Shown here: one piece after another, positions 2,230 through 63,334 of the stretch | How the letters are laid out: each line of letters opens with the position of its first letter | Position numbering within the stretch: the first letter of the stretch is position 1 | Assembly: GCA_041500405.1 (NCBI GenBank) | Contig: JBGQMB010000001.1 | Location: forward strand, 20,376-84,375 | From: Candidatus Micrarchaeia archaeon | GTDB lineage: Archaea > Micrarchaeota > Micrarchaeia > Anstonellales > J096 | DNA: 64,000 nucleotides | Reading direction: 5' to 3' | The notes under the pieces: generated by a model | The model's database searches: none | What the model was told of the DNA's origin: nothing | Seen by the model: the letters and a program-made list of their open reading frames with translations, nothing else | Position numbers and translations under genes: made by a program

Positions 2230-2278
2230 GCGCGCGGGCCCGTTTCCATTTTTAAATTTTTCCTATCCAGCGTAGGCT

Positions 2279-3058: not shown

Positions 3059-3172
3059 TTGGGCTCAAAACCAAGAAAATGGAAGAAGAAAGGCAAAATG
3101 AGATGGAAATGGATAAAGAAGAGAAGAAAAAGGCTCAAGAGAAAGCTTAAGAGAAGGGTCGGCGAGCTTTGA
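3059..3172 (+). CDS. rpl41e: ribosomal protein eL41 (eS32), 37 aa, not in ORF track
   Basis: TTG start after [46 protein letters not shown] matches the archaeal L41e pattern [18 protein letters not shown]. Confidence 0.93.
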
Positions 3173-3221
3173 AGTTGCGTCGGACCCTCATTTTTTAAAC
3201 ATTTACTGCGCAAAACAGAAT

Positions 3222-26067: not shown

Positions 26068-26152
26068 AGCGAGAAAATAAAGTAGGAAATATTGGCCCTG
26101 GGCTGCGATGGATTTTAAAACTGTTATAATACCACTTAATATGTGGTTTATA

Positions 26153-26941
26153 ATGGCACTCAGAACCAAAGAATCGGCAACAGGACCATGCACGGCGCCC
26201 TCGGGCATTTGCAAATTCAAGAACGCAACTGAAATCGGAAAAAATGCATCCGCAACCAAGAGCATGCTTCATACAAAATTCGGCCTGGCAATATGGAGAA
26301 GGAATCTGGATTCTGCAACCAGGTGCATTGCGGACGGGGCCGACCCCAATGCGATGTTTGATGGCATTCCGGACGCAATCAACCAGGGCCTATGGACGAT
26401 GTTCTCCTATGCATGCCATCATGCGTTGTCTGAAAATGACGCCCATATAGTGAGGGCGATGCTTGAAAGGTGCAGGGGCGTGGGCATCAACGCAATCGAC
26501 ATCGAAGGCAAAACCCCGTTGATGCTGGCATTGGAAAATTCCAACAAGGAGGTTGCCGGGCTGATACTGAAATACGATGTGGACGTCAGAATAAAGGACA
26601 ATGAAGGCAAGACTGCCCTGGTTCACGCAATCAAGAACTGCAACGGCATTGGTATCATTGCCATGATTCTTGAAAAAGGCGCGGATGCCAATGCAACCGA
26701 CAACTGCGGCAGGACGCCGATGATGTGGGCTTCTGATTCGGAGTGCGCCGCGGCGCTTATTGCCAGCAGAGCAGAAATGAATGCAAGGGACGCCAACGGC
26801 AGGTCCGTGCTTGGCCATGCTATCGGAAGCCTCGAGTTCTGCAAGGCATGCCTCCATTCCGAACTTGAATATTACATCGAAATGGTGGAGAGTTATGGCA
26901 AACTGGTTGATTTCCTAAAAGGCGCAGGCGCAAGGGAATAA
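26153..26941 (+). CDS. ankyrin-repeat protein (start uncertain)
   Basis: GKTPLMLA, GKTALVHA, GRTPMMWA, GRSVLGHA with GADxN-type linkers. Confidence 0.88.
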   Translation: MALRTKESATGPCTAPSGICKFKNATEIGKNASATKSMLHTKFGLAIWRRNLDSATRCIADGADPNAMFDGIPDAINQGLWTMFSYACHHALSENDAHIVRAMLERCRGVGINAIDIEGKTPLMLALENSNKEVAGLILKYDVDVRIKDNEGKTALVHAIKNCNGIGIIAMILEKGADANATDNCGRTPMMWASDSECAAALIASRAEMNARDANGRSVLGHAIGSLEFCKACLHSELEYYIEMVESYGKLVDFLKGAGARE

Positions 26942-26949
26942 TAGCGGCA

Positions 26950-28038
26950 TCATATCGAGAAAACAAGGTACGGAATTATTATTGAGCCGAGCAGCGCCGT
27001 TTTCTCGTCGTAGAATTTGTTTCCCACTGCAAAAGACGCCAGCATCAGCGCCGCGCCTGCCAGCCCGGATGTCGCAATGACAACAAGCGATATTGCCGCG
27101 GCAGCCAGGGCATACCCAAGCCTGCCCCTGCTGATTGTCCTGAAAATATTCTCTGCGACCGCAACCACAATCAGCGCGCCTGCGACATAGCCCATCACGA
27201 ACCAGATTTCGTTTCCTTTCACGATGTCCGCAATCTGGATGGTCGCGCCCACGCGCGGGGCCCCGACATCCAAGCCGGAAAAGCTCATGAAATACTGGGA
27301 CGCGGAGAACGAGGAAAAGAAGGACAGCATGGAAATGTCCTTCAGCATCGGATATGCAAACGCGCCCATTGCAGACGGCGCGCCCACTGCCGGAATTCCG
27401 AAGGAGACAAGCGCAAGCAGGACGCCAAGAATTGCACCCTTCGCCATTTCCTTGGAGTTTGGCATGCGGATGCTCTGCTGGACCGGCTTTTCCGTCCTTC
27501 CAAGCATTCCTCCGATGAGGAACGGAAGCGCAAAAAGGCCAGTGAAAATCGCCATGAACGGGTTGTCCAGATGAAAAGATATGCCGATGTAGCCGATTGC
27601 GCCTGAAAGAAGCAATCCAATGACCCAGCCGATGCGCCTGTTGAAAACCAGATTAAGGAAAAGCACAAGCAGGACAAGGTAAAACGAAACGGGCTTTAAC
27701 AGGGTTGCGGCGCTTTGCACAACGCTCCCGGGAATCATCACAGAAAGAATCAATCCAATGAACCCTGCGCCAAGCCAGCAGAAAACATACTCCCTGAGCC
27801 TGCCCTGGTTCAGGAACCTGTGCACAAGCGGAAGGGCTATGCCTGCCTCCCCTGGCGAGTAGGCGTAGATTATGGTCTGGATGATGACAAGCGCTGAAAA
27901 GGACCCGTACATCAGCATAAGCGCCTCGGGCGGCAGGATGCCCTCCGTAAGGCTCAAAATAAGCGAGATATGCACCCCTGGCAAGAACGAGAAAAGAACG
28001 ACCAATGCCAGACCAATGGCAAGGTCCACTGCAGCCAT
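26950..28038 (-). CDS. multi-pass membrane protein, TctA/DUF112-like
   Basis: FLPGVH, LPLVHRFL.QGR, LLSGAIG, AIFTGLFALP. Confidence 0.65.
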   Translation of the reverse strand: MAAVDLAIGLALVVLFSFLPGVHISLILSLTEGILPPEALMLMYGSFSALVIIQTIIYAYSPGEAGIALPLVHRFLNQGRLREYVFCWLGAGFIGLILSVMIPGSVVQSAATLLKPVSFYLVLLVLFLNLVFNRRIGWVIGLLLSGAIGYIGISFHLDNPFMAIFTGLFALPFLIGGMLGRTEKPVQQSIRMPNSKEMAKGAILGVLLALVSFGIPAVGAPSAMGAFAYPMLKDISMLSFFSSFSASQYFMSFSGLDVGAPRVGATIQIADIVKGNEIWFVMGYVAGALIVVAVAENIFRTISRGRLGYALAAAAISLVVIATSGLAGAALMLASFAVGNKFYDEKTALLGSIIIPYLVFSI

Positions 28039-28090
28039 GAATCAGATTGGCGCAGCCTGATTTTTAACCCCTTCGCCGTACAATAAAGGC

Positions 28091-28579
28091 ATGCAGCAGC
28101 GCCAGAAGGAAAAGGAGCATGGCCGTTTCAGGAAAAAGGCAATGCACCTGCTGGAATCAGGCAAAAGGTCAGTAAAGAGGATACTCACGCTCTCAAAGAA
28201 GAGCAAGGAGCTGGATGAGGCGCTCATCGTCTCCGCATGTAATGGCAACAACGTGGGAGTAATGCGGCTAATCAGGGCAGGAGCAAATATCGCAGCAAGG
28301 GATAACGAAGACAGGACAACAGCCCTGTTATGGGCCGCACGGAATGGATACACTAAAACCTGCGCCCTGCTTATCTCAGAATATACAAAAGCCAACGGAA
28401 ACATAAAGAGACTGATTGCAGCAAAGGACAATAAAGGCAGAACAGCTACGAAATGGGCCGCACGGAACGGACACACCCAAATTGTTCAGTTGTTCGATTC
28501 CATGGAAAACATGCAGGAAAGCATGGGCAAGGAAGCGTTCAGCTCATTCCTTTCCGCTTTCAATGAATGCGTTTCCTGA
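28091..28579 (+). CDS. ankyrin-repeat protein
   Basis: TALLWAARNGY and TATKWAARNGH repeats, GANIAARD. Confidence 0.88.
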   Translation: MQQRQKEKEHGRFRKKAMHLLESGKRSVKRILTLSKKSKELDEALIVSACNGNNVGVMRLIRAGANIAARDNEDRTTALLWAARNGYTKTCALLISEYTKANGNIKRLIAAKDNKGRTATKWAARNGHTQIVQLFDSMENMQESMGKEAFSSFLSAFNECVS

Positions 28580-31948: not shown

Positions 31949-32290
31949 ATGCAGAAAGAGAATCCTTTGGCTGGGCCGGAACCAGTGAAAAAGGAGATAA
32001 TGGCCGCGCTTTCAACGGTCATAGACCCGGAAATCGGCATAGACATCGTCAACCTGGGTCTGGTTTACGGCGTTGAGGTTGATTTAAAGAACAGCAAGGC
32101 AACGGTCCGCTTGACAATGACAACGCCGGCCTGCCCGCTCATGGGCGTCATCCTTTCTGACATCGAAAAGGCGCTCGGCGAAGTCAAGTCAGTGAAGGAC
32201 ATAATAGTCAAGCTTGTCTGGGACCCGCCATGGGACCAAAACAGGATGAGCGAAAGGGCGAAGATGATGCTTGGCGCGCCGAAACCCTAG
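31949..32290 (+). CDS. DUF59/SufT/PaaD-like Fe-S assembly protein
   Basis: VIDPEIGIDIVNLGLVY, TMTTPACP, WDPPW. Confidence 0.92.
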   Translation: MQKENPLAGPEPVKKEIMAALSTVIDPEIGIDIVNLGLVYGVEVDLKNSKATVRLTMTTPACPLMGVILSDIEKALGEVKSVKDIIVKLVWDPPWDQNRMSERAKMMLGAPKP

Positions 32291-32883
32291 ACGCGCTTGA
32301 ACGCAATGAGCCCGCCCTGGACCCTTGCAAACCTGTAATTGAGGATTAAGTATTTTTTCTGGATAAGGCTTCCGCCGCTTTCTATATTCGCCCTTATGTC
32401 GCCTTCAGGAAGCTCGCCGCACATGCCGACCGCGTACTCAAGCCCGTTCCTTTTTGCCTCCCTTTCCCTTTCCTCTATGAGCATCTCTATTATGCCCTTG
32501 CCCTGGTACTCGTTCAGCACCGCGGTCTCCTCCATGTAAAGCGCGTTTGCGGCCTGGCCGGTGTCAAGCGTCTTTTCAGACCTGTCGAAAAACACGGGCC
32601 ACGCAAGGCCAACCCCGACTATGAACTTCTCCACGCACGCGCCGTAGCTGTGGCCTTCGGCAATGATGTCCTTTATCTGCTTCACTTCCCTTGTCCCTAT
32701 CTCGAAAAGGGCGCTTCTCATCAGCTTGACGACCTCCTCAAGGTCTTCCTCATCAAGGCGCTTTATCTCGGCGCTTTCGTTGCTCGCTATTTCCAGGTCC
32801 TCAAGCAGCGCCCTCCTTTTCAGCGCGGACGGCGGGGCAAGCGCCTTGTGCCTTTCCTCCTTTTCCTTCTCCTGCTGGACCAT
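32287..32883 (-). CDS. GNAT-family acetyltransferase
   Basis: YMEETAVLNEYQGKGI acetyl-CoA binding motif A. Confidence 0.75.
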   Translation of the reverse strand: MVQQEKEKEERHKALAPPSALKRRALLEDLEIASNESAEIKRLDEEDLEEVVKLMRSALFEIGTREVKQIKDIIAEGHSYGACVEKFIVGVGLAWPVFFDRSEKTLDTGQAANALYMEETAVLNEYQGKGIIEMLIEEREREAKRNGLEYAVGMCGELPEGDIRANIESGGSLIQKKYLILNYRFARVQGGLIAFKRV

Positions 32884-47832: not shown

Positions 47833-48804
47833 ATGGACGACTTTGGCGCGTTCTTCCGGAAATACGGGAACTCGAAGCTCGCGTTTGTCGCGCATTCAAG
47901 GGCGGACATTGACAGCATAGCGTCCGCGCACGTCCTAAGGAAAAGGTTCAGGAACAGCGTCCTGCTGGTCCCAAACGACACAACATATTCCGCAGGAAAG
48001 CTCATTGAAACGTTCGGGATAAGGTTCGAGACGCTTGAGACTGTAAACATCAAGGATTTCGAGGCCGTTGTTTCGGTTGACGCGTCCAACTACGGGCTTT
48101 TCGAAATTGACAGGTCAATGAAGATAGCCGCGGTTTTCGACCACCACCAGAAGGCATACAATGGGTTCGAGGGCGAGTTCAACTATATAGACCCGAATGC
48201 AAAATCCACTGCTGAAATAATAGCCGGCATACTGGAAAGGGAGCTGGACAAGGAGGATGCGGCCATGCTTGCAGCTGCCATAATAATGGACACGGCGAGG
48301 TTCAAGTCCGCGAACAACGAAACATTCAGCATCCTGTTCAAGCTTATAGAAAAATCGAAGAGGGATTATTCAGAGCTTCTTTCAATCGCATACCCTCCGC
48401 TTCCGACAGACGAAAAAATAGCGATCCTCAAGGCGCTTCAAAGGGTGGAGTTCTTCGAGCACAAGGGATTCATAATCGCCCTGTCCAACGTCAACGCGAA
48501 GATAGGAGAGGCGTCATCAATGCTTTCTGATGCTGCGGATGCCGCGTTTGTCGCGCAGTTCAACGAAACTGAAAGGAAGACCATGGTTTCCGCAAGGGCA
48601 AATTCGCATTTCCCGGTTCCGCTGAACGGCATAATGTCGGAGATAGGCAAAAAATTCAAGGGCTCGGGAGGAGGCCATTTCAAGGCGTCCGGCGCATTCG
48701 GCTACGCAAAGCCAAATGAGGTGCTTGAGATGTGCCTCGGATTAGTCAAGCAGGAAATAGACAAGAAGAACCTGGATTATAGTCAGATTGTGCCGAAGAA
48801 ATAA
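47833..48804 (+). CDS. DHH/DHHA1 phosphoesterase
   Basis: HSRADID, FDHH, STAE, DT..F, GGGH..ASG. Confidence 0.92.
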   Translation: MDDFGAFFRKYGNSKLAFVAHSRADIDSIASAHVLRKRFRNSVLLVPNDTTYSAGKLIETFGIRFETLETVNIKDFEAVVSVDASNYGLFEIDRSMKIAAVFDHHQKAYNGFEGEFNYIDPNAKSTAEIIAGILERELDKEDAAMLAAAIIMDTARFKSANNETFSILFKLIEKSKRDYSELLSIAYPPLPTDEKIAILKALQRVEFFEHKGFIIALSNVNAKIGEASSMLSDAADAAFVAQFNETERKTMVSARANSHFPVPLNGIMSEIGKKFKGSGGGHFKASGAFGYAKPNEVLEMCLGLVKQEIDKKNLDYSQIVPKK

Positions 48805-48891
48805 TTGTCATTAAGCGGAGTTTTGTGTTGATATTCCGCTGCAGCCAGCCATCTTTTATAAACCGTTTACACAACCAACCATGTAAGTGGT

Positions 48892-50454
48892 ATGATGAAC
48901 GGAACCTTCAAGGATGTCAAAAAGGAGCTTGATGTCTACAGGCACAGGAAATACATCACGCAGGCCAAGCTGATAGACATCAGCACAGGCAAGAAGATTG
49001 TCGTGCTCAACGACAGGGAAGCAACCGCCAACGACGTATTCGAGGGCCAGAGGGTCGAGATAAAGATAAAGGGCGCGCCGCACATAGTCGTTGTCAACCT
49101 TTCAACGCACCTTGTCAAGGAAGGCGAGATTGGCATTTATGCTGATGTTTCAAAAGGATTCACAATATCAAATGGGGACATCATAGAGATAAACCACGTG
49201 CCGCTGCCGAAAAGCATTGAAACGATAATAAAGAAAATAGGCGGCCAGCCGACCACGAAGGAGGAAACAGACGCGATAATAACGGACCTCATGGCAAACA
49301 GGCTTTCGGAGGCAGAGCTGTCCGCGTGGCTGACCGCGTGCTCGGTAAGGGGGCTTAATGACGACGAGACTGTTTCACTCACCGAATCCATGGTCGCGTC
49401 CGGGGACACGCTCAAGCTTGGCAAGTCTCCCATAGTGGACAAGCACTGCATAGGCGGGGTTGCGGGAAACAGGACCACGATGGTGCTCGTCCCGATAATC
49501 GCGTCCGCAGGCATTTTCATACCGAAAACATCCTCAAGGGCGATAACGTCCCCTGCCGGGACAGCGGACACCATGGAGGTTTTCGCGCCCGTCAACATAA
49601 GCATGGACGAAATGAGGGAAATAGTCAAGAAAACATTCGGCGTCATAGTCTGGGGAGGCGGCATAAACATAGCGCCTGCAGACGACAAGATGATACAGCT
49701 CAGGCGCTCGCTGAGGATGGACCCGAAAGGCGTCCTTCTTGCAAGCATCCTGAGCAAGAAGAAGGCTGTCGGCTCGGAGCATGTGCTCATAGACGTGCCG
49801 CTCGGCATAAACGTCAAGATAGGCGATATGGGCGCAGCGCAGGACCTTGCAAAGGAATTCAAGACAATAGGCGCAAGGCTTGGCATGAACGTCGGCGTGA
49901 TCGTGACAAACGGCTCTGAGCCCATAGGCGACGGCATGGGGCCGGTCCTTGAGGCAAAAGATGTTCTCATGGTGTTGGAGGGCAAAGGCCCTGCGGACCT
50001 TAGGGACAAGAGCCTGCTGATGGCCGGAAAGATATTCGAGCTGTGCGGCAAGGTCAGCAAGGGCGAAGGATACGACGTGGCAAAGCACTTCCTTGAATCA
50101 GGCAAGGCGCTTGCGAAGATGAAAGAGATCATAGCGGCCCAGGGAGGGGACCCGAATGTGAAATCAAGCTCATTGCCGACAGCGAAATACTCTTATATTG
50201 TCAAGGCCACGGTTGACGGAAAGATAGAGCACATAGACAACAAGTGCGTGTCCCGCATCGCAAGGGCGACGGGGGCGCCGCAGGACAAGGCCGCGGGCCT
50301 TTACCTGCACAAGGCAAAGGGCGACACCATCAAGGTGGGCGACGTGCTTTTCGAGCTTTTCGCGGAAAGCGAGGCAAACCTGGATTTTGCGCTCAAGATG
50401 GCGGAAGAGTTCAACCCCGTTATGATGGGCAAGGTGCTGCTTGACGAGTTCTGA
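48892..50454 (+). CDS. AMP phosphorylase (thymidine phosphorylase family)
   Basis: Extra N-terminal beta domain; DKHCIGGVAGNRTT, PKTSSRAITSPAGTADTME, SILSKK, GAPQDKAAG. Confidence 0.95.
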   Translation: MMNGTFKDVKKELDVYRHRKYITQAKLIDISTGKKIVVLNDREATANDVFEGQRVEIKIKGAPHIVVVNLSTHLVKEGEIGIYADVSKGFTISNGDIIEINHVPLPKSIETIIKKIGGQPTTKEETDAIITDLMANRLSEAELSAWLTACSVRGLNDDETVSLTESMVASGDTLKLGKSPIVDKHCIGGVAGNRTTMVLVPIIASAGIFIPKTSSRAITSPAGTADTMEVFAPVNISMDEMREIVKKTFGVIVWGGGINIAPADDKMIQLRRSLRMDPKGVLLASILSKKKAVGSEHVLIDVPLGINVKIGDMGAAQDLAKEFKTIGARLGMNVGVIVTNGSEPIGDGMGPVLEAKDVLMVLEGKGPADLRDKSLLMAGKIFELCGKVSKGEGYDVAKHFLESGKALAKMKEIIAAQGGDPNVKSSSLPTAKYSYIVKATVDGKIEHIDNKCVSRIARATGAPQDKAAGLYLHKAKGDTIKVGDVLFELFAESEANLDFALKMAEEFNPVMMGKVLLDEF

Positions 50455-50466
50455 TGCACCGTCAGG

Positions 50467-50474
50467 TATAAAAA
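50467..50474 (+). promoter_or_regulatory. TATA box candidate for pta-ackA-acpS
   Basis: TATAAAAA ending 23 bp before ATG 50498. Confidence 0.5.
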
Positions 50475-50497
50475 CATCGGCCGCCCAATCGTTGCAC

Positions 50498-51493
50498 ATG
50501 GGCGTAATCTCCATTTTCGGAAAGACCGCCTGGAAAGGCTGCAGGATAGCCCTTCCCGAGGCAGAGGACGGGCGCATTTTGGAGGCGGCCGCGGCGGCAA
50601 TGAAAAAAGGGTTCGCGACGCCGGTCCTGATCGGGGACAAAAAAAAGATAAAGGCAAAGGCCACGGAGCTCGGCATCAGCATTGCCGGCATTGAGGTAAT
50701 GGACACGTCCAAAGGCGTTCCGCGGAAATACGTGGACGCCTATGCGAAAATAAGGCATGTGCCTCTGCGGCTTGCCGAGCGCATCCTTTCGGAGCCCATC
50801 TTCCTTGCTGCCCTGCTTGTTAAGCAGGGGGAGTGCGATGCCATGATGGGCGGCGCCGTGTACACCTCTGCCGACGTCATAACCGCATCAGAAGGCATAA
50901 TCGGCCTGAAAAAGGGCATATCCGTGCCTTCGAGCTTCTTCATAATGGAGATACCGGGATATGAAAACAAGGAGGGCGGGCTTGTGCTTTTCGCGGATTC
51001 ATCGGTGAATATTGAGCCGACGGCAGAACAGCTCGCTGATGTGGCAATAACAACTGCGCAGAGCGCAGCCGAGCTGCTTGGCTGGACCCCAAGGGTGGCA
51101 ATGCTGTCCTTTTCGACAAAGGGAAGCGCCATCCATCCAAGGGCGGACAAGGTCATAAAGGCAACGCAGATTGCGAACAGGAAGGCGCCGGGGCTTTTCA
51201 TAGACGGCGAGCTGCAGGGCGACTCCGCGCTTGTTGAAAGCACTGCAATGAAGAAGATGGGCAAGAAGATCGGCAATGTGGCAGGAAGAGCGAACGTCCT
51301 CATATTCCCTGACTTGGATTCAGGCAACATATCATACAAGCTTGTGCAGGCCTTCGCAAAGGCGAACTGCTACGGCCCGATACTGCAGGGCTTCCTGAAA
51401 CCGGTCAGCGACCTTTCAAGGGGGGCAAAGCCCGAAGACATAGCCGGCGCAATGGCAATCCTCAGCACATGGGCAGGGAGGATGAAAAGATGA
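50498..51493 (+). CDS. pta: phosphate acetyltransferase
   Basis: IALPEAED.RIL.AA, LSFSTKGS, DGELQ.D.AL, ANVLIFPDLDSGNISYK, GPILQG, DLSRG. Confidence 0.95.
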   Translation: MGVISIFGKTAWKGCRIALPEAEDGRILEAAAAAMKKGFATPVLIGDKKKIKAKATELGISIAGIEVMDTSKGVPRKYVDAYAKIRHVPLRLAERILSEPIFLAALLVKQGECDAMMGGAVYTSADVITASEGIIGLKKGISVPSSFFIMEIPGYENKEGGLVLFADSSVNIEPTAEQLADVAITTAQSAAELLGWTPRVAMLSFSTKGSAIHPRADKVIKATQIANRKAPGLFIDGELQGDSALVESTAMKKMGKKIGNVAGRANVLIFPDLDSGNISYKLVQAFAKANCYGPILQGFLKPVSDLSRGAKPEDIAGAMAILSTWAGRMKR

Positions 51494-52680
51494 ACAAGAT
51501 ATTGGTGCTCAACTGCGGAAGCTCCTCCATAAAATACAGGCTTTTTGACTCGAAGTTCAGGGAAATGCTCAGCGGAAAGGTGGAAAGGATAGGGGAAAAG
51601 GGGCCTGGGATTGTCCATGCCAAGGGCAAGGAAACCTTTAGGGCAAACGCAAAAGCAAGCAGCCACAAGGAGGCAATAGCATTGATGATAAGGATGCTCC
51701 ATGACAGGAAATGGGGCGGCATACGCAGCGTTTCGGAGATATCCGTCATAGGCCACCGCGCCGTCCACGGAGGCCAGATGGCGAAAACATCGCTTGTCTC
51801 CGGCGCGGCGCTGGACTACCTGAGGTCGTTTGAGATGCTCGCGCCGCTGCACAACCCCCATAACATAGAGGGCATGAAGGAGATGAAGAAGGCCATGCCG
51901 AACGTGCCGCAGGTCATGGTGTTCGACACGGCGTTCCACCAGACCATGCCGAGGAAGGCGTACATGTACGGGCTTCCTTACGCGTTCTTCGACAAATACG
52001 CGGTAAGGAGATACGGGTTCCACGGCACGTCCCACAAGTACGTTTCGCTCAGGGCCGCCGAAATGCTGAAAATGAAAAGGCCCAACCTCATAACATGCCA
52101 CCTTGGCGCAGGCTCAAGCATAACCGCGGTCAGGGAAGGCAGGTCTGTCGACACAAGCATGGGCATGACGCCATTGGAAGGCGTGATGATGGGAACAAGG
52201 ACAGGGGACATAGACCCGTCCATAGTCCAATACCTGGTGAAGAAATACGGCTTCAGCTATGACGACCTTTTTGACATCATGAACAACAGGAGCGGCCTGC
52301 TTGGCATATCCGGCGCAAGCAAGGACGTCAGGGTGATAATGGGAAAGGCAGGCAAGGGCAACGAGAGGTGCAGGCTTGCGCTCGAGATGTTCAGTTATAG
52401 AGTTTCAAAATACATCGGCGCATACGCCGCCGCGCTTGGCAAAGTCGACGCAATCGTGTTCACCGCAGGCATTGGCGAGAACTCCCCCTGGATAAGGAAA
52501 GAAATATGCGCCAGCCTCGGCATAATCGGGGCAAAGCTTGATTCCGGAAAAAACAGGAGGGCCATAGGCAAGGAAGCCGATATAAGCGCAAAAGGCTCGA
52601 AAATAAGAATGCTTGTGATTCCGACGGATGAGGAGCTGATGATGGCAAGGGAGGCCGCAGCCGCACTCGGGGGATTGTGA
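51490..52680 (+). CDS. ackA: acetate kinase
   Basis: LNCGSSSIK, GHRAVHGG, APLHN, FDTAFHQT, YGFHGTSH, TPLEG, FTAGIGEN. Confidence 0.97.
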   Translation: MNKILVLNCGSSSIKYRLFDSKFREMLSGKVERIGEKGPGIVHAKGKETFRANAKASSHKEAIALMIRMLHDRKWGGIRSVSEISVIGHRAVHGGQMAKTSLVSGAALDYLRSFEMLAPLHNPHNIEGMKEMKKAMPNVPQVMVFDTAFHQTMPRKAYMYGLPYAFFDKYAVRRYGFHGTSHKYVSLRAAEMLKMKRPNLITCHLGAGSSITAVREGRSVDTSMGMTPLEGVMMGTRTGDIDPSIVQYLVKKYGFSYDDLFDIMNNRSGLLGISGASKDVRVIMGKAGKGNERCRLALEMFSYRVSKYIGAYAAALGKVDAIVFTAGIGENSPWIRKEICASLGIIGAKLDSGKNRRAIGKEADISAKGSKIRMLVIPTDEELMMAREAAAALGGL

Positions 52681-53051
52681 TGGAGACAAGGGGAATCGGC
52701 GTGGACATTGTTGACATAAGAAAGCTCAGAAAAATCCTGAAGGGCAAGGCCGGAACGAAGTTCGTCTCCAACACCTTCACCAGGCGCGAGATAGGGTGCG
52801 CGAAAGGCGGGGCGAACATTTTCAAGCTCGCAACCTCGTTCGCCGCAAAGGAGGCGGTCTTCAAGGCCCTTGGCACAGGCTGGATTGAGGGAAAGGACGT
52901 GGAGATTGTGAGAAGCAGGGAAGAGGGCACGCCCAGCATAAGGCTTCATGGAAAAATCGAAAAAATGGCGAAGAAAATGAAAATAAGGAGAGTGCTGGTT
53001 TCGCTTTCGTTTGCCGAAGACTACGCAATTGCCTTTGCGGTCATCTCCTAG
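52677..53051 (+). CDS. acpS: holo-ACP synthase (AcpS-type phosphopantetheinyl transferase)
   Basis: GIGVDIVD, FT..E, FAAKEAVFKALGTG, G.P, VSLS; 124 aa. Confidence 0.93.
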   Translation: MMETRGIGVDIVDIRKLRKILKGKAGTKFVSNTFTRREIGCAKGGANIFKLATSFAAKEAVFKALGTGWIEGKDVEIVRSREEGTPSIRLHGKIEKMAKKMKIRRVLVSLSFAEDYAIAFAVIS

Positions 53052-53286
53052 CCTTCTTGTGCATATAGTCGATTGCCTCGCCCACCGTCTTGTTCTGCCT
53101 GACGTCCCCTTGCGGCACCCTTGTGTTGAACTCCATCTCAAGGGCCGCAAGCAGCTCAACGATGTTCATTGACTTTGCGTGCAGGTCGTCCACAAAGCTG
53201 GTGGAATCCTTAAGCTTGGCCGCGCTGACGCCGAACACGTCAGCAACGACCCTTTTGACCTTTTTTTCCACTTCCTTCCTATCCAT
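53041..53286 (-). CDS. acyl carrier protein
   Basis: 81 aa; SFVDDLHAKSMNIVELLAALEMEF...TVGEAIDY aligns with ACP SFxxDLGADSLDxVELxMALEEEF...TVGxAIDY; attachment Ser kept. Confidence 0.9.
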   Translation of the reverse strand: MDRKEVEKKVKRVVADVFGVSAAKLKDSTSFVDDLHAKSMNIVELLAALEMEFNTRVPQGDVRQNKTVGEAIDYMHKKARR

Positions 53287-53287
53287 C

Positions 53288-53695
53288 CTATTCCGCCACC
53301 TTGAACACGACGATGTTCATGCCGGCCATCTTCTTGACTTTTGCCTTGACCTTCATTGGCATCTTCGCATTCTGCGCCTCTATCGCCTCGACGTTTGAGA
53401 CATCCAGGCCCTCTATCTGCGTGAAGAAGCAGGGCCCCTCCTTGAGCTCTATGACTCCGTAGGCGTACGGATGATATTTCGCGAACTTCATGGGCGGAAG
53501 GTTTCCGCTTGAGAAGAAATGCAGCTTCCCGTCGCCGCTTATCTCCTCCCATTTCATGTCATGCGCGCTGCAGTTCTTGCACCCGGCCTTTGGCGGGAAC
53601 GTGAACTGACCGCACTTTTTGCACCTGACTCCGTAGATTTTGCCCTTTGCAAGGGACGCGTAGAACTTGCTTATCATGCTTTCCATGCTTTTCAC
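53288..53695 (-). CDS. DUF35 zinc-ribbon/OB-fold protein (thiolase partner)
   Basis: RCKKCG...FPPK..CKNC, W.EISG.G, PYAYGVIELKEG. Confidence 0.92.
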   Translation of the reverse strand: MKSMESMISKFYASLAKGKIYGVRCKKCGQFTFPPKAGCKNCSAHDMKWEEISGDGKLHFFSSGNLPPMKFAKYHPYAYGVIELKEGPCFFTQIEGLDVSNVEAIEAQNAKMPMKVKAKVKKMAGMNIVVFKVAE

Positions 53696-54972
53696 CTCTT
53701 AAGCACCGTAACAGCGGCATGCATGCCGTACCCGTGGTTGTGCACTACGGACACTCTCGGTATGTCCTTTATCTGCCTTCCCTTCGCCTCGCCCCTCATC
53801 TGCTTCACGGCCTCGTATATCTCCGAGCCTGCGGACGCCGCGAAAGCGTGCCCCTTTCCGTGCCTTCCACCGGACGTGTTCATGGGCTTGTCGCCGTCGT
53901 ACCTGGTCCTTCCCTCCATGACAGCCTTCCATGCCTCGCCCTTGCCGAAATACCCGCATATCTCGGACTCTATCAGGTGGTATATCTGCATGCAGTCGTG
54001 CACGCTAAGGTAGTCTATGTCGTCGGCCGTTATGCCCGCCATCCTCATGGCCGTGCTGAACGCGGTCCTGTCTATGTCCCATTCCGCGGGGTCCTTTCCG
54101 TACCACGGGTAGTTGCTTGCGCTCCAGTGGAATCCCTCCACGCCTATAGGCTCCTTTTTGCAGAACTCCCTTGCCTGCGCGTCCGAGCTTATTATGTATG
54201 CGGATGCGCCGTCGACTGTGTTGAGCGCGCTCCTCACCCTTGTGGGCCATGCAAGGAACGGGTTCTTTGCGCTCTTCCAGAATTCCTTGTCGTCCCTGAA
54301 CCCGGCCTTCTTCGCGTCCTGCTCGAACGTGGTCTGCACGTATGCCTTGCTGTTTTTGGACGAGTGCAGCTTGATGGTCCTGTGGATTTCGCGCATTGCC
54401 TCATCCATCTTTTCCATCTTCACGCCGTATTTCTTCGCGTATCCGAGCGTGGGCAGGCCGCCGTATGCGGTCGCGATGTCATATGAATGGTGGTACCCGT
54501 ATGCCTGGTCCACGCCGAAGTCTGTCCAATACCAGAGCGTCGTGGGGTCCAGCGGCTTCCTTATTGTCGGGTCGTCGGTTGCCGTTGACGAGAGTATCTC
54601 GCATCCCACCACAAGGACGTTCCTGAACTTTCCGGACGCAACCCCCATCGCAGCAAGCCCGACGCCGGTGTTGGTGGTTGAACAGGCTGTCGCAAAATGG
54701 ATTGCCGGCTTCAGGTGCAGCCCAAGCCAGTCCGCCATCTGGGTATTGTGAGAATAAAGATGACTTGCATGGCTGAGCATGCTGCCTATATAGAACGCGT
54801 CTATGTCCTTCGGGTCTATCCCCGAATCGTCCATCGCCTCGAAGGCGGCCTCGCACGCGAGCTCCTGGAAGCTCAATCCCTTTATCTCAGGGGTTTCCAG
54901 AACGCTTCCGAATTTGGTGCATCCAACGCCGGTTATCACCGGCTTTTCCTTAAGATTTCCCGCATATGCCAT
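53692..54972 (-). CDS. SCP2/archaeal-type thiolase family protein
   Basis: ITGVGCTKFG, catalytic TACST, DGASA, VHDC, NTSGG..GKGHAFAAS, QMRGEA. Confidence 0.93.
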   Translation of the reverse strand: MAYAGNLKEKPVITGVGCTKFGSVLETPEIKGLSFQELACEAAFEAMDDSGIDPKDIDAFYIGSMLSHASHLYSHNTQMADWLGLHLKPAIHFATACSTTNTGVGLAAMGVASGKFRNVLVVGCEILSSTATDDPTIRKPLDPTTLWYWTDFGVDQAYGYHHSYDIATAYGGLPTLGYAKKYGVKMEKMDEAMREIHRTIKLHSSKNSKAYVQTTFEQDAKKAGFRDDKEFWKSAKNPFLAWPTRVRSALNTVDGASAYIISSDAQAREFCKKEPIGVEGFHWSASNYPWYGKDPAEWDIDRTAFSTAMRMAGITADDIDYLSVHDCMQIYHLIESEICGYFGKGEAWKAVMEGRTRYDGDKPMNTSGGRHGKGHAFAASAGSEIYEAVKQMRGEAKGRQIKDIPRVSVVHNHGYGMHAAVTVLKR

Positions 54973-55077
54973 AATCTCCCCCTGCTCTGGTTTGGGTTGT
55001 CTTGCTTTTATTTGTTTCTTAGGATATACAGGAATGTTCAGCAACTGCGACCATATGCCAAGTTTTGCTTAAAAGAA

Positions 55078-55503
55078 CTACTTTCTGGCGAGCCCCCGGG
55101 TTTCCCAGCGCCGCTTGAGCGCAACCTCGTCAAGGTTAAGGACGAGCGAGAACGCCACTTCCTTTAACCTTGGGTCGTAGCTGCTTTCCCTTACTTCAAG
55201 GTATTCGATGCCCCTGCTTCCAGGGTCGTACTTCTGGATTGCCGCGCCGAAGTCTTTTTTCATCTCCGCAACAGCGGCATTCGCGTCTATCTGGGACTGG
55301 ACGTTGAAAAGCTTGAAAATCATCGGCTGGTGGGACTTGAAATCCTGGACGGCAAGCCTTCCGTCGCGCCCGCTTCCGCCCGGCAGTATTGCGCCGTACT
55401 TGTCGTCAAGCTTGTTGAGCAGTCTCTCAAATTCCTTAGCCACCGCATCTTTCGCCGTTTCCTTCGGCACTGCCTCCTTCAAGCTGACTTTTCCATTGCC
55501 CAT
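55078..55503 (-). CDS. hypothetical protein
   Basis: 141-aa ORF filling the gap; no recognisable motif. Confidence 0.55.
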   Translation of the reverse strand: MGNGKVSLKEAVPKETAKDAVAKEFERLLNKLDDKYGAILPGGSGRDGRLAVQDFKSHQPMIFKLFNVQSQIDANAAVAEMKKDFGAAIQKYDPGSRGIEYLEVRESSYDPRLKEVAFSLVLNLDEVALKRRWETRGLARK

Positions 55504-55548
55504 ATGACCACTGTTCGATATTTTTCACGGAAAGGCACTAAAAGGTTG

Positions 55549-56163
55549 CTATTTCCTGAACGGGCTTTTCCATGTCTTGAGCTTTTCCTTCACGCCCAGG
55601 ACTTCGTAAACCCCTTTCATGGCCTTTTCCGCGTCTGCGAAAATACGCTCCATCTCGGCTTCGGAAAAGCCGTTGTTGTTATCCCTGTCCGACGTGAAAA
55701 TCGTGTCGCCCAGCGCATTCGCCTTCCTGCGGAGCACATTCAGGTTCAAGTTTGCCTGCATATTGGTTCCTTCGATGTTCTTGACGCAGTAGAACACTAT
55801 GCGGTCAGGCTTCAGGTCATTGTTGAAGTCTATCATGTCGTAGCTGTTGTCGCCCTTCTCGGGCCTGCCTTCGCGCACCACTTTGGCGCAAGGCGTCTTC
55901 ACGCCCTTTACATCGCTTATCTCAAAACTGAATTTCTGGTTCTTGAGCAAGCCTTCTGTCTTGAAGCCCCTCTGGCATTCGTAGAATGCCTTAGCTTCCG
56001 GTCCGGGCTTTATCTCCCTGAATTGCTTTTTGCCGCAGCTTATGCCTATAGTAAGCCCTGCAACAAGCGGAAGAAAGAGCACGAACGGCAACTCCTTTGC
56101 CGTCCTCTTGATCGCTGTCCTCAAGTCCGCATTTTCAGGCCGTGCCTTGAAAAGCTGTTTCAT
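55549..56163 (-). CDS. hypothetical membrane-anchored, possibly lipidated, protein
   Basis: Hydrophobic stretch ending GISC; TATA-like TTTTTATA upstream. Confidence 0.6.
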   Translation of the reverse strand: MKQLFKARPENADLRTAIKRTAKELPFVLFLPLVAGLTIGISCGKKQFREIKPGPEAKAFYECQRGFKTEGLLKNQKFSFEISDVKGVKTPCAKVVREGRPEKGDNSYDMIDFNNDLKPDRIVFYCVKNIEGTNMQANLNLNVLRRKANALGDTIFTSDRDNNNGFSEAEMERIFADAEKAMKGVYEVLGVKEKLKTWKSPFRK

Positions 56164-56209
56164 AACATGTTATTTCGTGTAAACAATATAAAAAACTTGC
56201 GGTGATGGC

Positions 56210-56869
56210 TCAGGTTCCCTCGATTATGGAAACAACCTCATTCTCGTCCTTGAAGCCCGCGTAAACGGCGTCGTCTATTATGAGCGTCGGGTAAGCGCTG
56301 AAGCTGTACATTTTCTTGAGCATGCTCACTATCGCGGACTCCGTGGACGAGCCGTCAAACGAGTATATCCTCAGCTTCACGCCCTTTTCCGTGAAATAGC
56401 TTCTCACGCGCCAGAGTGCGGTTCCCTGGTCGCTGCACTTGCCGCACTCGCCCTCCTTATTAGAGTAAATGTATATTATTGTTTTCACGCTGTCGTTGCA
56501 GAGCCCGGCCGCGTTCCTTGCAAGCAACAAGTCCCTGTACTCCAGCTGGTAATACTTGAATTTCAGGCTTTGGTCAAATGGCTTCTTGCTGTATTCCATG
56601 AACTCCAATTGCTGGCCTATGCCCCAGGTCTCGTTTTCAAATGACGGGGAAAGCTCCCCGTACATGCTGCAGAACAGCGCGGGGTTTGATTCCGAGCCAA
56701 GAAGAAGCTGCATGTTCATCATGTTGTCGTTCATCGCCTCTATCTGCGCCATGACCGGGTCGGAGGCGTTGTCAGTAAGGTAATACCCTATCGCGACGCC
56801 TGAAAGGAACAGCAGCAGCGTAAGCACGAACGTTATCGCATATATCTCCCAAGTCCACATCCTCATCAT
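56210..56869 (-). CDS. membrane-anchored protein with C-terminal thioredoxin-like CxxC domain
   Basis: N-terminal TM; IYIYS...CGKC..QG; YPTLIID cis-Pro-like loop. Confidence 0.7.
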   Translation of the reverse strand: MMRMWTWEIYAITFVLTLLLFLSGVAIGYYLTDNASDPVMAQIEAMNDNMMNMQLLLGSESNPALFCSMYGELSPSFENETWGIGQQLEFMEYSKKPFDQSLKFKYYQLEYRDLLLARNAAGLCNDSVKTIIYIYSNKEGECGKCSDQGTALWRVRSYFTEKGVKLRIYSFDGSSTESAIVSMLKKMYSFSAYPTLIIDDAVYAGFKDENEVVSIIEGT

Positions 56870-56871
56870 TT

Positions 56872-58107
56872 TCACCTTGTGCTCCAAGCTTTCTCTTTTC
56901 CCATTATCTCCATGAGCAGGCTGGTGACCCATATATAGGGCCAGATGTACCCGAAGACAAAAAGGTAAACGAACATCTCCGGCGCCTCCCTGACTATGTT
57001 GATAGGCTTCTGTTTGGCGTAAGACCTTATATTGTTTACTGTGTACATCAGCCAGACCGCGGTTATCAGGACCATGGAAACAGTGACTATTATTATGGGG
57101 TCTGAAAGGTAGCCGTACGTGAAGCTGCCTGTGCCGATCCTCTCGCTCCAGAAGGATGACGGCTTTATGACGTTGTACACTATGCTGCTTATCAGTATTA
57201 TGGAAGGGATGAACACAAGCAGGTCTGTCATCATGCCGAAGAACAGGAAGTCCCCGTAATCCAGGCTAAAGAGGTCCTTGTGCTTTATCCTGTTCCATAT
57301 CCCGCCCCTGACCCACCTTACCCTTTGCTTGACCAAAAGGTCAAGCCTCGGCATAGCCGCCGTGTACACGAACGCGTCAAGCGAGCACTTTATCTTGTAC
57401 CCCTTTTTCTGGAGCTTGAGCGCGACCTCCTGGTCCTCCGTAAGGCTTTCCGGGTCAAATCCGCCAATCTTGAGCATGGCGTCCCTCCTGAACATGCTCA
57501 ATCCGCCTGGCGTGACGTATATGGAGTCAACCGCCATCATCAGCCTTCTCAAAAACAGTATCGAGTCGTACTCAAAGGCCTGCACCTTCTCAAGGATGTT
57601 CTTTGGCTCCCTTACCCTTATGGCAGCGGCAACCCCGCCAACAGACTTGTCAGCAAAATAAGAGGCAAGGTTCCTGAATGTGCCGCTATCAACTACGGAA
57701 TCGGAGTCCAGCGTTGCAACCAGCTCCCCGGCTGCGGCGTTTATCCCAACATTCTTGGAGTCGGATGCGCCGGTGTTTTTCTCTTTATGTATTATCCTGA
57801 ACCCGTATTTTTCGTACTCCTTGGCTATCGCGTGGCTGTTGTCCTTGGAGCAGTCGTCAACCACTATGACTTCGAGCTTTTCCTTGGGATAGTCGGACTT
57901 CAATACGGCGTCCAGCCCGAGCCTTAATGCCTCTCCCTCGTTGTAAACCGGCATCACGACGGACAGCATCGGAAGCTCCTTGTCTGCCATTTCCCTTGGC
58001 TTAAAATGCACATTATGGCGCTTGAGCGCAAAAAGCACTATGAACGTTATGGTGAGGTAAAGCAGGATGAACGCGGATACGTATATCAGCGGCCTTAGGA
58101 TGTCCAT
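56872..58107 (-). CDS. processive family 2 glycosyltransferase (PgaC/IcaA/cellulose-synthase-like)
   Basis: PVYNE, VDD, LDSDS, LTED, QRVRW, N- and C-terminal TMs. Confidence 0.92.
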   Translation of the reverse strand: MDILRPLIYVSAFILLYLTITFIVLFALKRHNVHFKPREMADKELPMLSVVMPVYNEGEALRLGLDAVLKSDYPKEKLEVIVVDDCSKDNSHAIAKEYEKYGFRIIHKEKNTGASDSKNVGINAAAGELVATLDSDSVVDSGTFRNLASYFADKSVGGVAAAIRVREPKNILEKVQAFEYDSILFLRRLMMAVDSIYVTPGGLSMFRRDAMLKIGGFDPESLTEDQEVALKLQKKGYKIKCSLDAFVYTAAMPRLDLLVKQRVRWVRGGIWNRIKHKDLFSLDYGDFLFFGMMTDLLVFIPSIILISSIVYNVIKPSSFWSERIGTGSFTYGYLSDPIIIVTVSMVLITAVWLMYTVNNIRSYAKQKPINIVREAPEMFVYLFVFGYIWPYIWVTSLLMEIMGKEKAWSTR

Positions 58108-60500: not shown

Positions 60501-61880
60501 TCACAAAACCCTTGCGGGTATCTTCGGCCCCTTCTTGAGCTTTGAAATGTCGCTTGCCTTAGGCATTATCCTCATAAGCCTTTCAGCATCCCTTATGCCA
60601 ATGCGGCTTTCAGTGCCTTTTCTCCTGAACCAGTCCACGCACGACTCGCATGTCCTTCCTTTGGTCGCAACTAGCATGTCGCGCGCGTCCTCCTTCATCT
60701 GTTTTGTCACTTCGCTGATGTTATCCCGGTCTGCGCTCCCCAATGTACCTAACTTCAGGAAATGGGAGACAAAATGGCAGCAGCCCGGAATTACCGTGCC
60801 GTCAGGCATAAGGCCGAATTCCTCGCTGTTGCAGTCCTTGAACGAGTACCAGGGGGTCATCACGAAATAGGCCTCGTCGTCCGCCTTTTTGCCGCTGAAA
60901 TACTTATTCATCCTTTCGATTATTTCTTTATGGTTTTTCACGGCGTTACCTATGCACCAAATGCCGCCCCTGTAATGGATATCGCTTGGGAATTTCATAG
61001 CGTCTTCGCGCCTTATGCCGAAGCCCGAGAGGAGGTCCGCAAGCATAGCGCCCCTGTTCTGGATATTCTTCCGCCATTCACCATCCTTGCGGTGTATCAG
61101 GCTTATGCCCTCAAGGCGCGGAACTGCCCTTATGCCGTTTTCGATGAAGAACTTGAGCGTTTTTCCTGCAGGTTCCATGCTGTCCATGAAGCTCCTTGTG
61201 CTGATGCTGATTCCAATCCTTGCCTTGTCGAAATCGCAGAGCTTGGCAAGCTTTTCAGCCGCTTCCATCTCGGCATGTGTCCTGATTCCGGACGTCATTA
61301 TGTACAAATATACATGAGGGAACATTTCAAAGATAGTCTTTACGACGTCACCGAGATCCTTTCCGCCGTCATTGTAAAGGAATGGCTCGCCATACGTGAT
61401 TGTGAGATGCCTACGTATAGACACTAGGCTGAGATAGTGTTCCAGGTCCTTGAATGGCATCTGCCCCAGCGTCATATCCGCTGACACGGCGCAGTGCAGA
61501 CATCCCCTGTTGCACCTTTCGGTTATGCCGATTGCCAATATCGGCAGCTTTTGCACGCCTGCTGATTTTTCTTCCTCAAGCGCCTTTTCCCTCAGCTCCC
61601 TGAGCCTGCGGCCAAATGCATCTGCCTTCTTCCTGCGCCTTGCGGATGCCCTGTATATCTGCACCATCTTCAGTTTCTGCCATTCCCCCAGCTTTTCGAA
61701 CTGCCTTTTCTGCTCTTCGGCGCTGGCGCCATTGGCAATGCCCATGAACATCTTATGCGCATCAGAGCCCCTTGGCTCGAAAGCTATGCCGCTCTCAAGA
61801 AGCGAAACTGCGGTCTTTGCCTTGAGCCCTTTGTAAACGAGCGGTATCTCCTTCCATATTGCGTTTTTCATTGCTTTCAC
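60501..61880 (-). CDS. radical SAM protein with SPASM/Twitch-like C-terminus, paralogue A
   Basis: CNRGCLHC, YGEPF, TSG; C...GLMPDGTVIPGCC...CESC. Confidence 0.88.
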   Translation of the reverse strand: MKAMKNAIWKEIPLVYKGLKAKTAVSLLESGIAFEPRGSDAHKMFMGIANGASAEEQKRQFEKLGEWQKLKMVQIYRASARRRKKADAFGRRLRELREKALEEEKSAGVQKLPILAIGITERCNRGCLHCAVSADMTLGQMPFKDLEHYLSLVSIRRHLTITYGEPFLYNDGGKDLGDVVKTIFEMFPHVYLYIMTSGIRTHAEMEAAEKLAKLCDFDKARIGISISTRSFMDSMEPAGKTLKFFIENGIRAVPRLEGISLIHRKDGEWRKNIQNRGAMLADLLSGFGIRREDAMKFPSDIHYRGGIWCIGNAVKNHKEIIERMNKYFSGKKADDEAYFVMTPWYSFKDCNSEEFGLMPDGTVIPGCCHFVSHFLKLGTLGSADRDNISEVTKQMKEDARDMLVATKGRTCESCVDWFRRKGTESRIGIRDAERLMRIMPKASDISKLKKGPKIPARVL

Positions 61881-63334
61881 GTATTCAACAGCGGGTTTAC
61901 AGCCCGCCTTATCACTGTTCCGCCGAACGTGCGGTTGAGTGCCTTGATGTCCTTTTCTGTCGGCAATACGCTAATGAGCTTTTCAGGGTTCCTTATGCCG
62001 AGCCTTCCGCCCATTCTCTTTTCCATTTTCACAAACCAGCTTACGCACTTGGCGCAGGACCTGCTTTTTCTCCAGCCCCTTTGCGCCGCGATGAAGCTGT
62101 ATTTGTCTTCCAGCATCTGCTTCACGACGCTTTCCCGGTTATCCTGCCCGATATTCTCAAGGGAGCCGAGCCTCATGAACGGAAACGCGAAGTTGCAGCA
62201 TCCTGGAACAATCTCGCCGTCAGGCATCAGGCCGAACCATTTCCTTTCGCACACGTCCTTGCGAAGGTCGCTGCAGTCATCCCAGCTTTTTATGATTATC
62301 CCCCCCAATTTTGCAGGGCTGAAATACATCTTCATGCTCTTTATCAGGCTTATGTAATTCGCGACCATGTTTCCCATGAACGCAAAGCACGGGTCGCACT
62401 GGATGTTGCTTTTTATGCTGTAGAGATCAGATATGCCAAAGCAGCTTGCCAGGTCCTTTATCACGGACTTCCTTTCCTGCTCGTCTATCCTGGCCTTTCC
62501 GTCATCACATTTGCTGAGCGTAACGCCTTCAAGCGACGGGGCTACCTTTATGCCGTTTTCAATGAAGAACTTCAGCGTTTCCCTTGCGGCGTCCATCCTG
62601 TGCGTGAAGTTCCTTACGCTCAGGGATATAGAAACCCTTTCCTTGTCCATTTCATTCAAACTTGCGAGCTTGCGCGCGGCCCTTGCCTCCAGCGAATTCT
62701 CGTCTTTCATGCTTATTCCGGAAGTGACTATGCCTATGGATACGTAGTCGCACTGTTCCAGCATGGCTTTTACGGCGTCGCCAAGGTCCTTTCCGCTGTC
62801 ATAGTAAAGGAACGGCTCCCCTGCGCCGGTAAATATCGTGTCCGGGTGCAGCCTAATGAGCCCAAGGTATCTTTCAAAATTCCTGAACGGCATCGCCTTT
62901 CCGCCCATATTGGCTGATACCATGCAGTGCAGGCATCCCCTGTTGCACTTTTCAGTCATTGTGATATACTTTACAGGCGCCTTCAATCCTTCATGTACTG
63001 ACTCTTTCAATGCCCTGTCCAGGTTTCCATTGATGATTTTGTAATTTCTTTTTCCAATGTCAATCCACTTTTCCCTTGCGTCTATGCTTTCCCTTATCCT
63101 TTCAACCTGCCAAGGCTCCAAATCCCTGGTCAAGGCGCTGACTTGCTTCTTGTCGTATTTTGCCTTTCTCAGCCTTTTCAAGGCCTCAAACGCCTTTGTG
63201 CCGTTTGGCTCGAAGAGCACGCCGCTCCTATAAAGCATCAATGCGGTTTGGGCCGGAATCTCCCTGTGAACTATCGGAAACAGGTCCTTGTCCTTCTTTT
63301 TGCCATCGCTGGCCATGTTCCTTACTGTGTTCAT
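61877..63334 (-). CDS. radical SAM protein with SPASM/Twitch-like C-terminus, paralogue B
   Basis: CNRGCLHC, AGEPF, TSG; C...GLMPDGEIVPGCC...CAKC. Confidence 0.88.
   Translation of the reverse strand: MNTVRNMASDGKKKDKDLFPIVHREIPAQTALMLYRSGVLFEPNGTKAFEALKRLRKAKYDKKQVSALTRDLEPWQVERIRESIDAREKWIDIGKRNYKIINGNLDRALKESVHEGLKAPVKYITMTEKCNRGCLHCMVSANMGGKAMPFRNFERYLGLIRLHPDTIFTGAGEPFLYYDSGKDLGDAVKAMLEQCDYVSIGIVTSGISMKDENSLEARAARKLASLNEMDKERVSISLSVRNFTHRMDAARETLKFFIENGIKVAPSLEGVTLSKCDDGKARIDEQERKSVIKDLASCFGISDLYSIKSNIQCDPCFAFMGNMVANYISLIKSMKMYFSPAKLGGIIIKSWDDCSDLRKDVCERKWFGLMPDGEIVPGCCNFAFPFMRLGSLENIGQDNRESVVKQMLEDKYSFIAAQRGWRKSRSCAKCVSWFVKMEKRMGGRLGIRNPEKLISVLPTEKDIKALNRTFGGTVIRRAVNPLLNT

Follow-up and report, generated by a model that had tools for sequence, protein, structure and literature searches.

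Six genes at positions 50498..54972 of a 64,000-nucleotide stretch of DNA from a Candidatus Micrarchaeia archaeon (assembly GCA_041500405.1, contig JBGQMB010000001.1; the whole stretch is called the window below) encode a phosphotransacetylase (Pta), an acetate kinase (AckA), an AcpS-type phosphopantetheinyl transferase (PPTase), an acyl carrier protein (ACP), a DUF35 protein and a thiolase. We found that these genes are conserved as a unit. The ACP is likely the partner of the Pta, in whichever direction the acyl groups flow. At about even chance, we read the module as an energy-harvesting acyl shuttle, in which a beta-dicarbonyl would be cleaved and its acetyl group passed from the ACP to acetyl phosphate and on to ATP. 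All parts belong to known families; the novelty lies in the system, which fits no known family on the tests made, and we found no description of a thiolase/DUF35 pair with an ACP and Pta-AckA in the open-access full-text literature.

A conserved unit of six genes

The cluster comprises the following genes.

50498..51493, + strand: phosphotransacetylase (pta), 331 aa, cluster-specific subfamily; Pfam PTA_PTB; Gln240, Ser307, Arg308 and Asp314 kept, Thr129 at the M. thermophila Arg133 position; predicted acyl-ACP substrate
51490..52680, + strand: acetate kinase (ackA), 396 aa; Pfam Acetate_kinase; TIGR00016 above cut-off; acetate-sized pocket as in M. thermophila AckA
52677..53051, + strand: AcpS-type PPTase (acpS); Pfam ACPS, PF01648; start GTG 52677 or ATG 52680
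53041..53286, - strand: private ACP (acp), 81 aa; Pfam PP-binding, PF00550; Ser39 within an AKSM motif
53288..53695, - strand: DUF35/ChsH2-type thiolase partner, Zn-ribbon and OB-fold; Pfam OB_ChsH2_C and zf-ChsH2; start GTG 53695 or ATG 53686
53692..54972, - strand: SCP2/archaeal-type thiolase, 426 aa; Pfam Thiolase_N and Thiolase_C_1; Cys97, His325-Asp-Cys, Gly374-His375; under all NCBIfam family cut-offs

All six open reading frames (ORFs) exceeded the Pfam cut-offs in a scan of the window. The pta and ackA genes are joined by an ATGA overlap and ackA and acpS by a GTGA overlap with an in-frame ATG next, while on the other strand the thiolase and DUF35 genes share a GTGA and a 1-bp gap separates DUF35 from acp. 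The 3' ends of acpS and acp overlap by 11 bp, and the whole cluster is placed after an exosome operon and an AMP phosphorylase gene. These ORFs and junctions, as well as the thiolase motifs TACS (Cys97), HDC (325-327) and GHA (374-376), are as an earlier note on this DNA had described them. That note had also raised a contig-specific linkage or a chimeric assembly as possibilities; however, the same convergent layout recurs in 11 other Micrarchaeota loci, three of which end at a contig edge inside ackA, indicating that the cluster is neither chimeric nor a product of chance. Its GC content (0.52-0.57) is also near the genome average (0.52 +/- 0.02 over 349 long ORFs). Pfam scans of 12 + 55 window ORFs contained no HMG-CoA synthase (HMGS), KAS, ketoacyl reductase or dehydratase, as had been claimed; the accompanying claim that no acyltransferase is present was slightly overstated, since a weak GNAT acetyltransferase lies at 32290-32883 (E 8e-6), ~18 kb from the cluster. 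An Rfam scan of 48000-58000 gave no match.

The thiolase was matched in 18 of 301 genomes of the phylum Micrarchaeota (E <= 1e-60). The cluster-type Pta family occurred in 19 genomes of a phylum sample of the same size, 16 of which are module genomes; in the two module genomes lacking a Pta match the contigs end within ackA, and two of the three non-module genomes carry plain Pta-AckA pairs. Across genome and metagenome collections, the family ranges over Micrarchaeota, Woesearchaeota, Asgard archaea, records labelled Methanosarcinales, the candidate phyla radiation (CPR), Actinomycetota, Chloroflexota, Bacillota and Spirochaetales. A Halodesulfurarchaeum protein shares 73-85% identity with two loci from metagenomes (L335, L336), and a haloarchaeal query of the genome contig collection returned no haloarchaeal locus.

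The order of the six genes is shuffled between lineages, while their company is largely kept. The tallies were made with profiles built from the same loci, of which 6 duplicate, 1 partial and 5 outgroup loci were excluded, and the ACP profile does pick up housekeeping ACPs. Among 38 loci of DPANN/Asgard/CPR type, only 20 of which have a 3-kb flank on both sides, 35 contain an ACP, 31 a Pta, 33 a kinase and 32 a PPTase, and 29 contain all six genes. The 13 loci of sister bacteria hold an ACP in 11, a Pta in 11, a kinase in 3 and a PPTase in 6, and the 46 loci of a Lachnospiraceae branch hold an ACP in 41, a Pta in 20, a kinase (butyrate-kinase type) in 13 and a PPTase in 20. In the metagenomes (n = 43), the counts were 33 for ACP, 32 for Pta, 31 for PPTase and 27 for AckA. 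The unit of thiolase, DUF35, ACP, AcpS, Pta and AckA recurs across archaea and bacteria in a neighbourhood search of the kind that the earlier note had proposed. Pairwise identities co-vary between thiolase and ACP and between ACP and Pta (rho 0.83 for each), although related sequences are not independent. Neighbour tallies over genome and metagenome loci revealed no conserved seventh gene outside the gut branch, barring a divergent FeaR-like regulator at 7 loci (Bacillota/Chloroflexota/Spirochaetales), and no reductase, synthase, dehydratase, HMGS, exporter or tailoring gene is conserved beside the loci.

The co-inheritance extends to loss. None of 31 Proteobacteria loci, 19 with a 3-kb flank on both sides, contains an ACP, Pta, kinase or PPTase, and these ACP-free loci form one clade nested among ACP-linked loci (FastTree, midpoint root). 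The cluster-type Pta was not found in any of the five ACP-free Proteobacteria genomes searched, where the matches were of the long malic-enzyme type or none, and it is found elsewhere in the genome in all five Lachnospiraceae-branch genomes that have an ACP and no flanking Pta. ACP, AcpS, Pta and AckA were thus jointly lost in one aerobic Proteobacteria clade.

The phosphotransacetylase and the carrier protein

The pair shares with M. thermophila Pta-AckA (Pta 1QZT, AckA 1G99/1TUU) its adjacency, the catalytic Ser309, Arg310 and Asp316 of the Pta and the acetate pocket of the kinase. In contrast to the canonical pair, the cluster Pta lacks Arg133, travels with ACP, AcpS and thiolase, coexists with ACD or a housekeeping Pta, and is modelled with the ACP docked at its CoA site. 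Ser309, Arg310, Arg87 and Arg133 are numbered after M. thermophila Pta (PMC6461089). In our alignment, Arg133 is kept in none of the 60 cluster Ptas, the window copy having Thr129, while Gln244 is present in 60 and Ser309/Arg310 in 59, the remaining sequence being incomplete; Arg87 is kept in 21, including the window copy. Arg133 is retained in all seven housekeeping Ptas from cluster-bearing genomes, in three PDB Ptas and in 53 of 80 Ptas of a separate sample, which was taken from 2 of 64 collection parts in order of similarity to a cluster Pta.

The ACP is a PF00550 four-helix carrier, accompanied by the PF01648 PPTase, and is the sole PP-binding match in the genome. Its serine is conserved in 87/87 copies and is never preceded by Asp. 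Nearly all archaea lack ACP and AcpS, according to bioRxiv 2024.07.05.601840. In a predicted complex of two Pta chains with the ACP, the score was 0.70, compared with 0.00 for the best of three controls. Of 157 solved pairs, 116 reached the mark for this score, as did 2 of 215 mismatched pairs, a calibration that applies roughly here. The runs share at least 91% of contacts, with a predicted local distance difference test (pLDDT) value of 86 for the partner. In the model, Ser39 and helix 38-51 of the ACP are placed against Pta residues 86-96 and 125-134, which form the Arg87/Arg133 region, and Ser39 itself faces Thr129. As a prediction, the model supports docking of the ACP on the CoA site of the Pta. 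By comparison of names, none of 18 Pta-like PDB sequences is designated as an ACP complex.

Several points temper the case for an ACP-directed Pta. Arg133 is also missing in 27 of the 80 sampled Ptas, so that its loss, which we had considered as proof of ACP use, is weaker evidence and not diagnostic. Arg133-less Ptas nested in the same clade include two (L242, L244) beside a thiamine pyrophosphate enzyme, which we take to be the taurine-pathway Xsc; these Ptas presumably use CoA. Conversely, an ACP-linked Bathyarchaeota Pta (L299) retains Arg133. In addition, Arg87 and Arg133 chiefly influence the Km (PMC6461089), and the window Pta keeps the Arg87 equivalent. Finally, the controls of the complex model were unrelated proteins rather than a housekeeping Pta or ACP.

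Cleavage, acetylation and other readings

In the favoured reading, AcpS would arm the private ACP by loading Ser39, and the thiolase with its DUF35 partner would split a small beta-dicarbonyl via acetyl-Cys97, from which the acetyl group would move onto the ACP. The Pta would then turn acetyl-ACP, not acetyl-CoA, into acetyl phosphate, and the acetate kinase would make ATP and acetate from it. The candidate substrate class is a free 1,3-diketone (acetylacetone, acetylpyruvate, P-HPD) or a 3-oxoacyl thioester. This direction, the substrate class, the loading of Ser39 by AcpS and the use of the ACP by the thiolase are inferred. The earlier note had offered thiolysis yielding acetate and ATP as its reverse option, which we now favour at even chance; its proposal of a self-contained module with acyl groups likely on a phosphopantetheinylated ACP is supported, and the module matched no characterised pathway.

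The structure model of the thiolase (pLDDT 94.9) is roughly as close to archaeal thiolases as to SCP2-thiolases, PhlC and BbsB, at 20-29% identity, and the protein reaches no NCBIfam family cut-off. Cys97, His325-Asp-Cys and Gly374-His375 are conserved in the window clade, the sister bacteria and Proteobacteria. The thiolase shares its fold (query TM-score ~0.8), its DUF35 partner and its Cys/HDx/GH motifs with the archaeal acetoacetyl-CoA thiolase/HMGS/DUF35 complex (6ESQ/6ET9) and BbsAB (7PXP). It differs from them in its low identity (24-29%), in its linkage to ACP, AcpS, Pta and AckA without an HMGS, and in a conserved, family-specific aromatic insertion at ~residues 130-180, which suggests a substrate of its own. 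The scores lay below the cut-offs, with 139 versus 600 bits for the mevalonate-type NF053570, and 35 versus 250 and 107 versus 750 bits for BbsA and BbsB of the benzoylsuccinyl-CoA thiolase.

Cleavage is favoured by the HDx histidine, by the lack of a conserved acetoacetyl sink at the loci, by the FeaR-like regulator, and by the setting of the Lachnospiraceae branch among importers, C-glycoside deglycosidase subunits, a sugar kinase, an aldolase and esterases. Thiolysis requires the HDxF histidine, which the acetyltransferases PhlC and MucB no longer have (PMC12960953); the window thiolase keeps it. Single steps of the shuttle have precedents, as PlsX is an acyl-ACP:phosphate acyltransferase, which feeds lipid synthesis with long chains, citrate lyase has an ACP as a catabolic carrier, and LsrF, of aldolase fold, uses CoA; none of them is known to join a private ACP to an acyl kinase. 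Thiolysis of a free beta-diketone, P-HPD, has been described for LsrF (PMC6410053).

Other points count against the energy-harvesting shuttle. The ACP-free Proteobacteria clade is a close thiolase/DUF35 relative that manages without a private ACP, the joint loss in this clade is a single event, and Pta is retained in two Myxococcota. The catabolic neighbours of the Lachnospiraceae branch may not transfer to the window, because this branch is 32-36% identical and has lost the HDx histidine; its main part has NDF instead and may do different chemistry. Moreover, a variant of the shuttle with a GlmU-like protein probably runs in the acetylating direction, and it is the main reason for our caution about the direction.

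The same ACP shuttle could run in reverse, from acetate and ATP through acetyl phosphate to acetyl-ACP, so that the thiolase/DUF35 pair acetylates a small acceptor for detoxification or as a product, in the manner of PhlBC or MucBC without the HMGS-like subunit. We consider this unlikely, yet it is the main alternative. The shuttle also stands beside a TIGR03991 GlmU-like acetyltransferase (over the cut-off at L299 and L334, by Pfam at L224), and E. coli GlmU prefers acetyl-ACP (PMC8666670). The E. coli enzyme works with acetyl-ACP in place of acetyl-CoA, as is proposed for the module; its acetyl-ACP, however, is supplied by malonyl-ACP decarboxylase acting on the housekeeping ACP rather than by Pta-AckA. 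In Proteobacteria, the two-gene form stands free, has spread recently and resembles a detoxification cassette, and the fold matches of the thiolase include PhlC and chains of the MucB complex. The PhlABC/MucABC Friedel-Crafts acetyltransferases have a thiolase-fold acyl-enzyme and DUF35 in common with the module, whereas here there is no PhlA/MucA-like subunit, no polyketide or non-ribosomal peptide synthase nearby, and the HDx histidine, lost in PhlC and MucB, is kept everywhere except the Lachnospiraceae branch. In addition, neither an exporter nor a tailoring gene is conserved, and an ATP-costly private donor is hard to explain where POR or ACD already provide acetyl-CoA.

The host genome bears on the remaining readings. 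It is 916 kb long and 86% complete, and carries separate genes for HMGS (contig C20), a second thiolase (C8), a second DUF35 (C6), POR (C2), ACD and Rubisco (C10), so that the interconversion of acetyl-CoA and acetate and the entry into mevalonate synthesis are provided for without the module. The earlier note had proposed an inventory of HMGS, Fab enzymes and a second thiolase; HMGS and the thiolase are present, while KAS (PF00109), FabD (PF00698) and an AMP-binding enzyme were not found in this 86% complete genome, leaving no detected synthase for an ACP-bound chain. Its suggestion that Pta-AckA makes acetyl-CoA fares poorly, as the genome has ACD and POR and the Pta looks ACP-directed. ACD exceeded its cut-off in most genomes with the module (16 of 18) and likewise in most of the other genomes (19 of 22), and we therefore rejected the module as an ACD replacement.

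The wide occurrence of ACD also tells against a second alternative, in which the thiolase merely swaps acetyl groups between the CoA and ACP carriers or splits acetoacetyl-CoA with transfer to the ACP, as a side branch from the CoA pool through acetyl phosphate to ATP, or in which the Pta works with CoA and the ACP is a bystander. Thiolases are capable of acetyl-enzyme exchange, POR is present, and Arg133-less Ptas probably using CoA exist. A stand-alone Pseudomonas ACAT/HMGS-DUF35 cleaves acetoacetyl-CoA (PMC12960953). Nevertheless, ACP and Pta are retained and lost jointly and are modelled as a complex, and the aromatic insertion suggests that the thiolase has its own substrate; we regard this alternative as improbable.

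A malonyl-independent Claisen condensation on the ACP, starting fatty acid, polyketide or mevalonate synthesis or feeding lipid or protein acylation, as the earlier note had considered, is very improbable. In its favour, the thiolase has kept its two cysteines as well as the HDx and GH motifs, this genome and 5/5 module relatives encode HMGS, and archaea have a fatty-acid synthase complex with thiolase/DUF35 (bioRxiv 2024.07.05.601840). Against it, the KAS and malonyl transacylase of type II fatty acid and polyketide synthases were found neither in the 86% complete genome nor in the window, no reductase, synthase, dehydratase, HMGS or exporter is a conserved neighbour, and mevalonate synthesis has its separate genes. 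Condensation is also uphill without a sink.

Two further substrate schemes were set aside. A diketone derived from ribulose bisphosphate (RuBP) via AMP phosphorylase and Rubisco fails as a general substrate, with adjacency in 2 of 14 archaeal/CPR loci and Rubisco-family genes in 6 of 21 other module genomes. For sugar cleavage (3-keto-glucose to formyl and ribulose, or to tetronyl and glycolaldehyde), none of the FGGY kinase, aldolase, dehydrogenases and OYE reached a specific NCBIfam cut-off, and no assignment was made. The AMP phosphorylase gene of the window (48892-50454) lies directly upstream of pta, an adjacency kept only in the two closest relatives (L001, L002).

Other enzyme heads and wider meaning

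The shuttle genes also accompany other enzymes. ACP, Pta, kinase and AcpS flank a TIGR03991 GlmU-like protein at L299, ACP and AcpS do so at L333 and L334, and Pta and ACP at L224. In L299 (10001-14263, Bathyarchaeota B24), Pta-AckA forms an operon with the GlmU-like protein, ACP and AcpS, and 3 of 17 genomes of its class had a PP-binding match. Bathyarchaeal Pta-Ack is cited as evidence for acetogenesis, an inference for which this operon context may matter. In Lachnospiraceae, ACP, Pta and butyrate kinase stand with a CocE/NonD hydrolase at L247 (7386-12110, AcpS included) and at L330 (4154-8669, no PPTase in view), the latter adjoining C-glycoside deglycosidase-like genes and transporters.

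Gut genomes carry up to several thiolase/DUF35/ACP paralogues. Paralogous ACP-thiolase-DUF35 units of Lachnospiraceae (L015-L062, L328, L329, L331) lie with OYE flavoenzyme, 2-hydroxyacid dehydrogenase, FGGY kinase, class II aldolase, Fe-ADH and ThuA-like genes, and probably represent an undescribed glycoside or polyphenol catabolic pathway. Phloretin-type cleavage was considered for this branch; Catenibacillus already encodes a phloretin hydrolase (PMC11170127), and the main text of that paper does not mention an acyl carrier, acetyltransferase or butyrate kinase. Five loci (L112, L124, L157, L054, L046) have two thiolase/DUF35 pairs of different subfamilies, and in L112, L124 and L054 both pairs stand beside a single Pta and kinase set.

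The two-gene thiolase/DUF35 form of Proteobacteria is a mobile cassette (L168:14238-16957, L160, L162, L152) in Paracoccus, Pseudaminobacter, Ciceribacter and Aquibaculum, without conserved neighbours. Its proteins are 75-100% identical, its DNA is 94-99.6% identical across genera, and it lies beside IS5 on a Paracoccus plasmid. A habitat search returned mixed soil, sediment, sludge and compost runs and no substrate clue.

Elsewhere in the window, we noticed two tandem paralogous radical SAM proteins of 459 and 485 aa with no named subfamily (60501-63334), three tandem Yip1-domain proteins (1315-3947), and two ankyrin-repeat proteins (26108-28576), similar to ankyrin-like proteins on contigs C2, C6 and C8.

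Taken more broadly, and with rather less than even confidence, we propose that anaerobes from DPANN/CPR to gut Lachnospiraceae share an undescribed platform for substrate-level phosphorylation in which a private ACP stands in for CoA. The acyl-enzyme heads, such as thiolase/DUF35 paralogues or CocE-like hydrolases, would be interchangeable and would load acyl groups from small molecules onto the ACP, and an acyl-ACP:phosphate transacylase and a kinase would convert them to ATP; in this archaeon, six genes would give CoA-independent ATP from a diffusible beta-dicarbonyl. Usually, a genomic ACP is taken as a sign of fatty-acid synthesis, and Pta-AckA as one of acetogenesis or of acetyl-CoA/acetate metabolism. 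The proposal lends itself to direct testing, since carriers of the module have been cultured and its six proteins are small and apparently soluble. If it is true, a Pta acting on acyl-ACP would be a new enzyme activity, some archaeal and CPR Pta-AckA pairs would have been misread in metabolic reconstructions, and the module would provide a new source of ATP for ultra-small symbionts, about whose energy supply little has been learnt.

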